46,819 nucleotides of DNA from Puniceicoccales bacterium (GTDB taxonomy: Bacteria > Verrucomicrobiota > Verrucomicrobiia > Opitutales > LL51). The stretch spans positions 1-46,819 of the forward strand of contig JAIRYA010000064.1 in assembly GCA_031268005.1 (NCBI GenBank). The letters run 5' to 3'. The notes beneath the pieces were generated by a model, which did no database searches, was not told the DNA's origin, and worked only from the letters and a program-made list of their open reading frames with translations. How positions within the stretch are numbered: the first letter of the stretch is position 1; every line of letters begins with the position of its first letter. Shown here in pieces: positions 3,926-37,940 of this stretch. The position numbers and the translations under genes were made by a program.

Positions 3926-4001
3926 AGGAGAATAGCTCAATTGGAAGAGCAACGGTCTCCAAAACCGTAGGTTGGGGGTTCGAGACCCTCTTCTCCTGCC
4001 A
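3926..4001 (+). tRNA. tRNA-Trp (anticodon CCA), CCA encoded
   Basis: 76 nt. Acceptor AGGAGAA/TTCTCCT, anticodon stem ACGGT/ACCGT with loop CTCCAAA, T-arm GGGGG-TTCGAGA-CCCTC. The tuf/secE position is classical. Confidence 0.9.
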
Positions 4002-34460: not shown

Positions 34461-34670
34461 ATTCATGGACTCCTTGAATTCTTTCATCCAAAACCAGGGG
34501 AGAATTTCCCCTGATTTTGGCACGGAAGAAGAAATTTCTGTTTAAAAAAAGACTCCTTTTGCCCAATGCCTTCGCAATTTGCAAAGGCATTAAACTTATA
34601 AGAGGTCCAGGAGACGGATCTCCTGGCGGGGATCCTAAGGGCGAGTAGCTCTTAGAGAGCAGTTCTCTTA
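34461..34670 (+). repeat. Multi-hairpin intergenic repeat, copy A
   Basis: About 210 bp that aligns by eye at roughly 80-85% to 37629-37940. Hairpins at 34488-34520, 34565-34591, 34607-34626 and 34635-34655. Confidence 0.8.
34488..34520. terminator. Terminator-like hairpin inside repeat copy A, between convergent genes
   Basis: CCAAAACCAGGGGA-gaat-TTCCCCTGATTTTGG. An A-run and T-run at the stem base give a bidirectional-terminator geometry. There is one C-A mismatch. Confidence 0.4.
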
Positions 34671-36284
34671 TAATACCTGGGAAGAAAATTTTTTACCCAG
34701 TGCCAATCGATGAATTTTGGCATTGTGACGTGGATCGACGGGAAAGGATCTACAAAAAAAGAAATCGCGAATGGGTGCCGTCTTTGGAAAACATTGTGCC
34801 AAGTGTCTCAATTTCCGGCGCATTTTCCATTTTTCCCAAAAAAAGAAAGGATAGCAATCCGGTTTCGGAAGAATGGCAATGGCCGGACAAATTTTACCTT
34901 TCCTTTTGATACTGATAAGGGCAGCACGTTCGACGAAGGAATATTTGCAAAACAATGGTTCGATGCAATCGGGATAGTATTCTTCTCCATCCTCCGTGAC
35001 GATGCGTTCGGATTTCCGTCCGCAGAACCAGAGGCGTCCCTTTTCATCTAAAAATCCTAGATCACCCATCCGATGGCAAATTTTTCCATTTTGATGGATC
35101 TTTGCCAGAGCCGTTTTTTCGGGGAGTTGGTCGTATGCTTCTGTCACGTTGCCGCCGGAAACGGTAATTTCACCGATATAGCCCAGGGATAAAAGGTTGT
35201 GTTCATCCATACTTTCGACGATTCCGTCAACGGGGGTAATAATTTGAATTTCGATTCCTTCAACCGGAAAGCCGAGGCAGGTCCCCGCACCATTTTCCTG
35301 TAGGGGGCGGATCTCGCCTAAAATTTCCTCCGCCGAAATCGAACACACCGGTAAACATTCCGTGGCTCCGTAGGGTGTGAAAATTTTCGCACTTGGAGCG
35401 ATGTCTTGAATTTTTTCGAGAACGTTCGCCGTTGCCGAAACCCCCGCCAGAAAAATTTGTTCCAAATTGCGGATTTTTAGATCATTTTCCAAACAATAGT
35501 CGGCGATTTTATTCCACAAAATCGGTGCGCCGAAACTACTCCTTGCTCCCTGATTAAGCATCGTTTCGATGACACTGGGAGCGTGAAAATTTATGGGATG
35601 GGAAAAATCCATGTGGGGAATAATAGATGTCCGCCCAAATAGGGGATTAAATAGGGTAAAAATTGGCAAAAGTGTGACATCTCGAACATTGGATTCCAGT
35701 TGATAGGTGGACCGCAATTTGTGTAATTGATCCACGAAATTGCGCTGCTTATAGGCGACGCCTTTGGCAACTCCCGTCGATCCCGAAGTAAATAAAATCG
35801 CAACGGTATCTTCTGGATCGATATTTTGCACGGTTACGGTTGTCTTTTGAAGCCTTGCAAATGAGCGGCGAACGGCAATCACTTTTCCGTGAATATTTAT
35901 AATTCGACAAAAAATAAGTCCCCCTATGGCGGGTGTGCAAACGATGAAATCCGGTTTTGAAAAATTTCCCAGGCGAGTGAATTCCTTCAAACCGACGCCG
36001 GAATCGATTAAAATCGGGATCGCTCCCACGCGTATTAGTGCGAAAAAAGTACACATCATTTCCATGCCGGGATGTAAAAGCATGAGCACGCGCGAGCCTT
36101 GTGCTAGGCCATTTTTTAGAAATTCTACGGCATATTGATCGATGTGTCTGTCCAATTCTTTGAAATTTAGGCGGCGACAAATGGACGCATGCCCCATGAA
36201 ATTTGTTTTCATTTCGATAACCGCATCCACCGACGGCATCGTTTCTCCGTATTGTTTAATTACCCATGTGAGATTATCTCCCAT
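34668..36284 (-). CDS. Adenylate-forming enzyme (AMP-dependent synthetase/ligase superfamily), substrate unknown
   Basis: LFTSGSTGVAKG (A3), YGATE (A5), GDLGFLDEKGRLWFCGRKSERI (A8), and a terminal RHNAKIHR Lys motif. Confidence 0.85.
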   Translation of the reverse strand: MGDNLTWVIKQYGETMPSVDAVIEMKTNFMGHASICRRLNFKELDRHIDQYAVEFLKNGLAQGSRVLMLLHPGMEMMCTFFALIRVGAIPILIDSGVGLKEFTRLGNFSKPDFIVCTPAIGGLIFCRIINIHGKVIAVRRSFARLQKTTVTVQNIDPEDTVAILFTSGSTGVAKGVAYKQRNFVDQLHKLRSTYQLESNVRDVTLLPIFTLFNPLFGRTSIIPHMDFSHPINFHAPSVIETMLNQGARSSFGAPILWNKIADYCLENDLKIRNLEQIFLAGVSATANVLEKIQDIAPSAKIFTPYGATECLPVCSISAEEILGEIRPLQENGAGTCLGFPVEGIEIQIITPVDGIVESMDEHNLLSLGYIGEITVSGGNVTEAYDQLPEKTALAKIHQNGKICHRMGDLGFLDEKGRLWFCGRKSERIVTEDGEEYYPDCIEPLFCKYSFVERAALISIKRKGKICPAIAILPKPDCYPFFFWEKWKMRRKLRHLAQCFPKTAPIRDFFFCRSFPVDPRHNAKIHRLALGKKFSSQVL

Positions 36285-36285
36285 G

Positions 36286-37545
36286 CTATTTTTTTTCTCT
36301 CAAAGCCGATTCCCGTTCAAGAAGTGTCGGATGGGAGTAGTAAAATGCCGTAAAAAGAGGGTGAGGTGTTAAATTTGATAAATTTTCTCGGTGTAATTTT
36401 CTCAATCCCGAAATTAAAGGTTCCGGCTCTCCTAGAATTTTTAGAGCAAATTGATCCGCTTCGTACTCGTGCTTCCGCGATAGAAAATTTAATAGGGGTT
36501 CGATCCAAAAAGTTATGCCTGTAATCGCAATCGAAAAGATGAGAATGAGGGGAATGAGAGAGTATTCATAGGCAGCGTAAAAACCAAAACTTTCTAGAAA
36601 CCAATTGGTCAGCGAGAGATAGTATAGCATTCCAAAACCACAAAGTGTGCAAATCCCTTCGACGATGAGGTGGGTGCGAATGTGTTGGTGTTTGTAGTGG
36701 CCGATTTCGTGTGCCAGGGTTGCCGTAATTTCTTCGATGGTCATCTGTTGAATGAGCGTATCGTAGAGGACAATGTGACGAAATTTTCCAATTCCCGTAA
36801 AAAATGCATTGGAATGTGCCGAACGCTTACTGCCATCCATGGTGTAGATTTTATTGATGGGAAAATTTGTCAATTGGGCCAGTTCCAGGAGGCGATCTTT
36901 GAGTTCGCCGTCCCCTAGGGGTGTCAATTTGTTGAAAAGCGGCAAAATGAGTAGGGGGTAGATGACGATCATCACGGTTTGAAAAAACATGACCGTGGCC
37001 CATCCCCAAATCCACCAGGAGTTTGGAAATTTTTGAAATAAATACACGACCGCTGAGATGATCGGTAGGCCGAAAAGAAAACTGACGATGTAGCCCTTTA
37101 TCTTATCGGTCCAAAAAATTGTCTGCGTAGAACGATTGAATCCAAAATTTTTTTCCAGGTGAAATTGTCGCCACCAACCGAAAGGAATTGACAAAAAGGA
37201 TAGTAAAATATTGACGGTCACCAGCGTGGCCGCTTGGCCCCAGATTGTGAATCCGAAGTATTTGCTGAGAATTGAAAAGAGAAAGGGTAGGCAGCCCGAA
37301 CAGAGAAAAATAACATCCCAGAAAAAGGTCCAGCCATTGCAAATCGATGAAAATTTAGATTTGGAAAAGGTGTAGTCGATGCTCTTTTGGTAAGTGGGTA
37401 AATCAATAAATTGTTCAAATCCATGGGGAACTTGTTCCCGGTGCTTTAAAATGTGGCGGCTATTAATTTTGCTCAATATTTCTTCGATCAAAAATTTCAA
37501 TGACAAAAATAAAACGAATGTTTTCGTAACGGAATTGACCCACAT
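36286..37545 (-). CDS. Ste24-type zinc metalloprotease (peptidase M48A, CAAX prenyl protease 1-like architecture)
   Basis: A multi-TM N-terminal half, HEIGHYKHQH (HExxH), and a C-terminal YSHPTLLERESAL identical in pattern to the eukaryotic Ste24/ZMPSTE24 YSHPxLLER. Confidence 0.82.
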   Translation of the reverse strand: MWVNSVTKTFVLFLSLKFLIEEILSKINSRHILKHREQVPHGFEQFIDLPTYQKSIDYTFSKSKFSSICNGWTFFWDVIFLCSGCLPFLFSILSKYFGFTIWGQAATLVTVNILLSFLSIPFGWWRQFHLEKNFGFNRSTQTIFWTDKIKGYIVSFLFGLPIISAVVYLFQKFPNSWWIWGWATVMFFQTVMIVIYPLLILPLFNKLTPLGDGELKDRLLELAQLTNFPINKIYTMDGSKRSAHSNAFFTGIGKFRHIVLYDTLIQQMTIEEITATLAHEIGHYKHQHIRTHLIVEGICTLCGFGMLYYLSLTNWFLESFGFYAAYEYSLIPLILIFSIAITGITFWIEPLLNFLSRKHEYEADQFALKILGEPEPLISGLRKLHRENLSNLTPHPLFTAFYYSHPTLLERESALREKK

Positions 37546-37597
37546 AGGTCTCTAAATCTTTTAAAAAATACATTTTCGTCAACGCAAATTCCGAGTT

Positions 37598-37940
37598 TAC
37601 TTGAGGCTTTGCTCAAACTCCACAAGGAATCATGGACTCCTTGACTTCCTTCAGCCAAAAGCAGGGGAAATTTTCCCCTGCTTTTGGAACGGAGAAGGGA
37701 GTTTTGTTTGAAAAAAGACTCTTGTTGCTCAAAGAATTTTCCTAAAAAGAGATTCCCGCCCCGCGGCTTTGCCGCGGGGCCTTTGCTCAGAAAAAGAAAT
37801 CTTGTTTAAAAAAGACTCTTTTGCCCAATGGCTTTGCAATTTGCAAAGGCATTGGGGCTGGTAAAAGGTCCAGGAGATCGGTCTCCTGCGGGGATCCTAA
37901 GGGTGAGTAGCCCTTAGAACAGCCGCGGAGTTCTTGGAAA
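37598..37940 (+). repeat. Multi-hairpin intergenic repeat, copy B (expanded)
   Basis: It has the same module order as copy A plus an extra 5-prime module shared with copy C. It also has an internal duplication carrying a perfect GC hairpin at 37758-37780. Other hairpins lie at 37655-37687, 37827-37853, 37870-37888 and 37897-37917. Confidence 0.8.
37655..37687. terminator. Terminator-like hairpin inside repeat copy B
   Basis: CCAAAAGCAGGGGAAA-tt-TTCCCCTGCTTTTGG, a perfect ~15-bp stem. It lies downstream of the 299-aa gene on the minus strand. Confidence 0.4.

Follow-up and report, generated by a model that had tools for sequence, protein, structure and literature searches.

Mosaic chains of hairpins form a dispersed intergenic repeat family in reduced-genome Puniceicoccales symbionts of termite guts

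On a 46,819-nt contig of a Puniceicoccales bacterium (contig JAIRYA010000064.1, assembly GCA_031268005.1; hereafter the window), two stretches of hairpin-forming DNA stand on either side of a ligase/Ste24 gene pair, and the question that they raise is what such repeats are and whether they have anything to do with the genes between them. The initial annotation had left three explanations open, namely a structured element family of the repetitive extragenic palindromic (REP), bacterial interspersed mosaic element (BIME) or miniature inverted-repeat transposable element (MITE) kind that doubles as stacked bidirectional terminators, a family of structured RNAs, or recombination substrates allowing excision or duplication of the enclosed genes. 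Here, we show that both stretches belong to a dispersed, intergenic family of mosaic hairpin repeats whose stems are maintained by compensatory change. The family is previously undescribed, and full-text literature searches found no description of it. We propose that it probably represents selfish, non-autonomous, structure-dependent DNA repeats of the REP/BIME/BOX kind. The window is contig C15 of a source genome (G000) of 919,556 bp in 72 contigs, with 43% G+C and 89% completeness, and holds two long copies (A and B) and one fragment of the family, built from hairpin modules H0 to H6:

34461..34667, + strand: copy A, a short unit of degenerate H1, H2, AT-rich linker, H4, H5 and H6, delimited from the sequence, the alignment to copy B and module matches
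34467-34477: degenerate H1 of copy A, 3' arm only
34488..34520, + strand: H2 of copy A, the CCAAAAxCAGGGGA palindrome, CCAAAACCAGGGGA gaatt TCCCCTGATTTTGG
34565..34591, + strand: H4 of copy A, AATGxCTTxGCAA/TTGCAAAGGCATT, reading AATGCCTTCGCAA t TTGCAAAGGCATT
34607..34655, + strand: double-hairpin core of copy A (H5, linker and H6), the conserved part
34607-34626: H5 of copy A, the CCAGGAGA hairpin, CCAGGAGAC gg ATCTCCTGG, followed by the linker CGGGGATC
34635-34655: H6 of copy A, the CTAAGGG hairpin, CTAAGGGC gagta GCTCTTAG
34600-34660: match of the core covariance model (R1) in copy A, E=6e-16
~37598..37925, + strand: copy B, a full-length unit, H0a-H1-H2-linker-H3-linker-H4-H5-H6
37600..37643, + strand: 5' modules of copy B, H0a (CTTGAGGC ttt GCTCAAAC) and H1 (CAAGGAATC atg GACTCCTTG)
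37654-37687, + strand: H2 of copy B
37758..37780, + strand: H3 of copy B, an optional, perfect 10-bp GC hairpin, GCCCCGCGGC ttt GCCGCGGGGC
37823-37858, + strand: H4 of copy B
37870-37888, + strand: H5 of copy B
37897-37917, + strand: H6 of copy B
37863-37922: match of the core covariance model (R1) in copy B
41891..41936, - strand: solitary 5' fragment of H0a and H1, without H2 to H6, directly downstream of the stop codon of a Ser/Thr kinase gene

Direct reading of the sequence placed every hairpin module that the initial annotation had named where it had been reported. Copies A and B hold the same modules in the same order, with 77% mean column identity over their alignment, blocks at 80-94% and a 96-nt insertion in B, and BLAST with copy A as the query retrieves copy B at E=1.9e-32 and 6.4e-25. 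The change from G-U to G-C in the last hairpin (H6) and the perfect GC hairpin of copy B were both verified, the internal duplication ascribed to copy B is a repeated linker (repeat family D3), and its extra 5' module does recur inverted in the fragment at 41891-41936. Both copies had also been thought to fill their spacers exactly, which holds for copy A, bounded by the stop codons of a histidine kinase gene (34459) and the convergent ligase gene (34668), but not for copy B, which leaves ~50 nt of conserved, promoter-like sequence before the Ste24 start. Folded as single strands, the two copies are far more stable than shuffled sequence (copy A, z = -4.5; copy B, z = -8.8). H2 of copy A is a species-specific long hairpin in which an A-tract, a GC stem and a T-tract give the look of a bidirectional terminator, and the outer GCCC/GGGC pairs of its H4 have decayed.

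The count of copies across the genome that the initial annotation had called for turned up many more, all of them intergenic. BLAST with copy A gave 104 matches in G000, which merge into ~72 regions on 35 contigs covering 14.8 kb, or 1.6% of the genome, and a covariance model of the core identified 62 core copies. For many copies a contig end is only a few hundred bases away, so the repeats evidently break the assembly and these counts are minimum estimates. Each of the 46 core-bearing clusters (46/46) sits between genes, the few overlaps being with short open reading frames (ORFs) inside arrays; ~10% of all spacers are occupied, and the neighbours of large arrays are housekeeping genes (glyA, ligA, obg, murA, rplS, sufBC, cmk and clpB). 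The structured, dispersed family of mosaic hairpin repeats that had been suspected is thereby confirmed at ~60 copies in this genome, with further members in relatives.

The unit follows one fixed module order, [H0a/H0b/H0c]-H1-H2-[H3]-H4-H5-H6, over about 110-400 nt. A module census of G000 by blastn-short counted 25 H0, 22 H1, 25 H2, 33 H3, 59 H4 and 58 H5-H6, so that numbers increase toward the 3' core and H4-H5-H6 forms the constant 3' part, while H3 (33 of ~58 units) and likewise H0 to H2 are optional. Long units begin at H0 or H1 and short units at H3, and the two alternate in head-to-tail arrays (e.g., C22:15313-15983, C26:4229-5046, C40:10511-11266 and C59:593-1350). Units that neighbour each other in arrays are more alike than dispersed units (86% versus 74% pairwise identity), which points to local tandem duplication. 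The modules are joined by conserved non-palindromic linkers (AAAAAGACTC.., AGG and CGGGGAT), and the unit ends 3' in an asymmetric double-hairpin core, GGTCCAGG..CCTGG-CGGGGAT-..AAGGGC-GNGNA-GCCCTT.

Covariation across copies, for which the initial annotation had also asked, is pronounced. Within G000, Watson-Crick pairing reaches 90% in H4, 93% in H5 and 83% in H6, with many compensated variants, and identity to the consensus is 90.5% in stem columns versus 71% in the others. When 62 cores from 9 genomes are aligned, pairing holds in 98.7% of stem cells and 6 of the 17 stem pairs are compensatory; changes on both sides of a stem occupy 74 cells, compared to 22 in shuffles, a level that none of 500 shuffles reached (0/500), and in slid controls pairing collapses to 33-59%. 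GNA and TNC loops of H3 occur at 10:5 in G000 and 44:12 elsewhere, A and T loops of H4 at 26:12, and these flips, found overall in 20-30% of copies, point to palindrome dynamics at the DNA level. Triloops of the C-GNA-G type, such as GCGAAGC, make DNA mini-hairpins of unusual stability, which we take as a lead only.

Beyond the source genome, the sequence changes faster than the architecture. BLAST matched only the last 53 nt of the unit (H5-linker-H6) in congeners; 8 of 13 gave a match, of 85-91% identity, and their ligase protein is only 61-72% identical. In 27 genomes of other genera there was no match for the element. Conserved across species are H1, H3 (CCGCGGC-GNA-GCCGCGG), the outer pairs of H5, the linker CGGGGAT and the inner stem of H6 with its GNGNA loop, and a core of 35 nt spanning H5, linker and H6 is shared by the genus with two other families of the order. 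The flanks of these cores in congeners retain the whole hairpin architecture with species-specific stems. In each lineage, the long palindromes H2 and H4 are unrelated to those of the others, and the H5 stem reads CCAGGAGAC/GTCTCCTGG in G000 and CCAGGGGAT/ATCCCCTGG, CCAGGAGGC/GCCTCCTGG or CCAGGAAAC/GTTTCCTGG elsewhere. Because the H5 stem differs by species, a pattern built on its G000 version found no loci in the sequence collection, while a pattern on the invariant linker and H6 found 118, all in metagenome-assembled genomes (MAGs) of termite-gut Puniceicoccales. An alternative pairing of the H5 3' arm with the CGGGGAT linker was considered and dropped, since the linker is invariant and the arm varies.

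Copy numbers differ widely within the genus. Covariance models found no copies in G001, G005 and G004, the last of which is a complete, single-contig genome, 3 in G013, 4 in G006, 17 in G002, 62 in G000 and 139 in G007, with at least 34 each in G003, G008 and G010. In 151 genomes from 89 genera of the order, the family turned up in just two more lineages, both from other families, with 14 copies in G035 (1.3 Mb) and one convincing copy in G055 (1.1 Mb). Their loci (L171-L177) comprise GGGAAAACCTTTTTT..AAAAAAGGTTTTCCC, followed by a small GC hairpin, a long one and GGTCCAGG..CCTGG-CGAGGGG-GGGGC-GAGGA-GCCCC, and in their flanks the chain of hairpins is the same although the stems differ. All told, 8 other MAGs and two other families of the order have this architecture with rewritten stems. 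Its presence in G035 and G055 may go back to an old vertical inheritance or to transfer among symbionts living side by side. None of the viral contigs searched for the core holds it. From these searches, the family is specific to termite-gut symbionts among the Puniceicoccales (Verrucomicrobiota) that have reduced genomes.

The same data show that the family is gained and lost between species, and that it grows by local tandem duplication and decays by internal deletion. G008 and G009 are 92-98% identical in unique DNA, and at one site that they share (96% identical around it) ~150 nt have been lost inside an element, leaving half-arms of H6 and H2. Several alignments of these two genomes stop at elements and resume on other contigs (L123 versus L105/L107; L121 versus L167-L169), and such breaks in synteny may stem from recombination between copies or from chimeric joins in short-read assembly. 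In G007 (Po218_bin25; 0.7 Mb, 65% complete) many cores form close pairs on alternating strands (e.g., C81:2280-2799 and C53:236-382), an arrangement closer to BIMEs and to the REP doublets known as REPINs than are the head-to-tail arrays of G000.

Under the reading that we favor, the element would act and spread as folded single-stranded DNA (ssDNA) exposed during replication, with its conserved core possibly recognised in trans by some enzyme; effects on neighboring genes, such as pausing, read-through termination or protection of mRNA 3' ends, would be a by-product and not the reason for the element. Several observations weigh against selfish DNA repeats of this kind. Searches for Y1 transposases including the REP-associated tyrosine transposase (Y1/RAYT PF01797), Transposase_31 (PF04754), reverse transcriptase (RVT_1 PF00078), TnpB (PF07282) and IS110 (PF01548) found none in the 14 genomes of the genus (0/14), although the control genomes did match; as the MAGs of the genus are 64-95% complete, the absence of RAYT is strong, short of absolute. 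Terminal inverted repeats or target-site duplications could not be defined at the ragged 5' ends, which are mosaics of H0-type hairpins, and between the close relatives G008 and G009 no clean pair of filled and empty sites was found. The copies are fairly old (74% pairwise identity) and their stems are preserved in place, which could indicate a function at the level of the host or the RNA. In G000, the element lies sense to its upstream gene at 27:12, and H6 mismatches favor G-T over A-C at 41:16, an excess confined to this genome. In favor of DNA over RNA, element orientation follows the sign of local GC skew at 27:13 in G000 and at 57:31 across seven others (binomial p = 0.007). This association is a modest lead toward a replication-strand effect; the loci are short and the copies are not independent of each other.

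A comparison of gene content with the complete, repeat-free G004 left 177 of the 745 ORFs of at least 100 aa in G000 without a tblastn match (E<1e-5), and those among the missing that are conserved in repeat-rich relatives are mostly metabolic. One protein with a nuclease fold was considered as a mobiliser: an SfsA homologue (OB fold plus PD-(D/E)XK 'RE' domain, Pfam E=2e-15) is encoded at C8:20022-20801 on the - strand, adjoins a full-length element and is absent from G004. It was rejected, since some congeners with few or no repeats have it and a repeat-rich one lacks it. The accessory fraction of G000 relative to G004 is large for a genome of ~1 Mb and takes in genes for biotin synthesis, one like that of ornithine decarboxylase and numerous large orphan proteins; tandem paralogues at C36:37317-39989 gave no significant Pfam match (best E=0.002, below the cut-off).

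The alternative that survives best, which we nonetheless hold to be unlikely, is that the elements are structured RNAs, either cis-acting modules in 3' untranslated regions that terminate transcription or protect mRNA, or independent multi-copy small RNAs, kept by selection on the fold. The strong covariation of stems that are conserved in place beyond the linkers, an architecture retained across three family-level lineages, the high stability of the folded copies and the conserved orientation of the GNGNA loop of H6 are all consistent with it, as are, in G000, the sense bias and the excess of convergent over divergent gene contexts (11 versus 4), the G-T excess of H6 on the + strand, and the resemblance of H2 to a bidirectional intrinsic terminator. 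The features particular to G000 do not recur elsewhere, however. In 8 other genomes (the 118 loci) the sense ratio is 30:29 and convergent contexts number 13 versus 11 divergent, and we accordingly dropped the sense bias as a trait of the family; there is no robust link between element orientation and the direction of transcription. The G-T excess is likewise missing in other species, whose H2 has no T-tract, and the loop flips of H3 and H4 are tolerated. The family is also dispensable, with a range of 0-139 copies and none in the complete congener and two others. In Rfam 15, only two tRNAs in the window reached the gathering score, while three arrays matched at E<=1, far below that score and as expected of chance hairpins. 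These tRNAs, tRNA-Thr(GGT) at 2565-2640 and tRNA-Trp(CCA) at 3926-4001, are the sole Rfam/ARAGORN matches in the window. The elements show no enrichment in promoters or terminators, and since some copies occupy spacers between divergent genes and T-tracts are missing from most hairpins, a general role as stacked bidirectional terminators appears unlikely. The RNA family raised by the initial annotation is therefore not favored.

A bolder reading, which we regard as decidedly improbable, is that of a replicator defined by structure and fluid in sequence, in which an ordered, 250-400-nt chain of 6-8 hairpins and the 35-nt core persist across three family-level lineages while every other stem is rewritten by compensatory change, reaching up to 139 copies in 0.7 Mb (G007) with no recognisable transposase. 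If it held, it would imply either that host enzymes of replication or repair move ssDNA hairpins in a new way that favors one replication strand, or that multi-copy structured RNAs include a further, new class. More doubtful again are domesticated host DNA sites, for example for binding or cleavage by gyrase, nucleoid proteins or replication and segregation factors, as proposed for some BIMEs. A core that is invariant across species with proteins only ~68% identical, an orientation that tracks GC skew at about 2:1 and the spread of copies over many contigs would all suit such sites, but the complete congener has none, counts vary widely between species, copies are clustered in tandem arrays with uneven spacing, and the element decays by deletion.

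The last of the explanations, in which copies A and B make the genes between them mobile, turns on these genes and their two spacers:

34668..37545, - strand: ligase (AMP-binding) and Ste24/M48 gene pair between copies A and B, assigned by Pfam and synteny
37570-37597, - strand: motif upstream of Ste24, TTGACGAAAATG..., in which TTTTCGTCAAC is TTGACG on the gene strand

The gene order (155-aa gene, kinase, ligase, Ste24, acidic protein, CesT) is kept in 10 congeners, in most of which both spacers are repeat-free. Between kinase and ligase, the spacer measures 2-60 nt and has no repeat in G004, G005, G010, G011 and G013, while it is filled in G000 and, separately, in G009, where ~390 nt carry the same H1 and otherwise different hairpins. 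Upstream of Ste24, only G000 has the element and the orthologous spacers of 8 congeners do not. Here the motif TTTTCGTCAAC(G/A)(C/A)AA, ~30-45 nt before the Ste24 start, is conserved in 9 of 9 genomes compared, and it is probably the -35 box of a promoter of the Ste24-ligase operon, with copy B inserted immediately outside it. Because gene order is conserved and the spacers are mostly empty in congeners, copies A and B are two independent, lineage-specific insertions in neighboring spacers, and the ligase/Ste24 pair, by its synteny, is an ancestral block lying outside the element. Although the copies are in direct orientation, 3.2 kb apart and share blocks of 80-94% identity, an excisable or duplicable cassette is thus highly improbable: the enclosed genes do not vary across the 10 congeners as those of an integron-like or composite cassette would, the best blocks are short (31-87 nt, with short unbroken identical runs) and make poor substrates for homologous recombination, and with about one in ten G000 spacers occupied by the family, neighboring occupied spacers are to be expected. 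For the window, this removes the idea of a mobile ligase/Ste24 cassette.

Genomes of ~1 Mb in obligate intracellular bacteria are expected to shed repeats, and here a family takes up at least 1.6% of one such genome, while its copy number in sister species is anywhere from 0 to 139. Its points of interest are a fold conserved at the level of the order with fluid sequence, the missing known mobiliser and a possible replication-strand bias, and the family lends itself as a clean natural experiment in which palindromic DNA can be followed as it spreads and persists in the absence of a RAYT-type enzyme. In practice, the family may provide markers for strain typing, and it serves as a warning for the assembly and annotation of MAGs from these symbionts.

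Among known systems, the closest in kind are the palindromic repeats of enterobacteria and Pseudomonas, REP/BIME and REPIN-RAYT (Bertels and Rainey 2011, PMC3116915; PMC3337134; PMC5581495). Like REP and BIME sequences, the family consists of short palindromic units in tens to hundreds of extragenic copies, is non-coding, non-autonomous and lineage-specific, and forms mosaics with conserved linker motifs and hairpins predicted in ssDNA or mRNA. As repeated extragenic short palindromes it fits the definition of REPs, with 62 cores and all 46 clusters outside convincing ORFs, and as palindromes joined by a few conserved non-palindromic motifs it fits that of BIMEs, with seven modules and conserved linkers. 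In BIMEs the palindromic units alternate in orientation and are bound by IHF, gyrase or Pol I, whereas in the near-perfect palindromes of the present family the loops alone set the orientation. It departs from REPIN-RAYT in having no RAYT (Y1 HUH transposase, the gene for which REPs usually flank) in the 14 genomes of the genus, and chains of 5-8 different hairpins in one order and orientation in place of inverted REP doublets. The 5' GTAG head of REPs is also lacking, the conserved part being the 35-nt asymmetric double-hairpin core, and GTAG itself is seen nowhere but in a fraction of H6 loops (6 of 43 read GAGTA; loop consensus GNGNA). The REPIN-RAYT class therefore fails for want of a RAYT, an inverted doublet and a GTAG head.

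MITEs such as the Correia elements of Neisseria are small, abundant, non-autonomous intergenic repeats able to alter the expression of neighboring genes, and in size, abundance, placement and lack of autonomy the present family is similar. Its ends (H0/H1 and H6), however, are not inverted copies of each other and its 5' ends are ragged, so it fails as a MITE for lack of terminal inverted repeats; as to a cognate transposase, neither IS110, TnpB, Y1, Transposase_31 nor reverse transcriptase was found in the 14 genomes, other DDE families not being part of the search. Mitochondrial double-hairpin elements, GC clusters and Rickettsia palindromic elements likewise spread GC-rich hairpins through small, AT-richer genomes, those of organelles or of obligate intracellular bacteria, with no obvious transposase. 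The first of these resemble the family in that its conserved core is a double hairpin, a likeness by description between different hosts and sequences, and Rickettsia palindromic elements differ by inserting in frame into genes, of which the 46 clusters of G000 gave no instance.

The build of the unit is best matched by BOX elements of Streptococcus pneumoniae, which are modular (boxA-boxB(n)-boxC), have no transposase and occur in few species, and which their authors judged to be parasitic, allowing that genes co-transcribed with them may be affected (Croucher et al. 2011, PMC3049150). The two differ in sequence and host phylum, and the present family is set apart by near-perfect palindromes, species-specific covarying stems and the fact that it forms no ORFs; the comparison is therefore one of build, not of sequence, and the assignment one by analogy. 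Within it, both families combine a fixed end with optional or repeated internal modules, extensive secondary structure and no known transposase, and both are found in few related species only, in the case of BOX as a parasitic element with slow turnover (PMC3049150).

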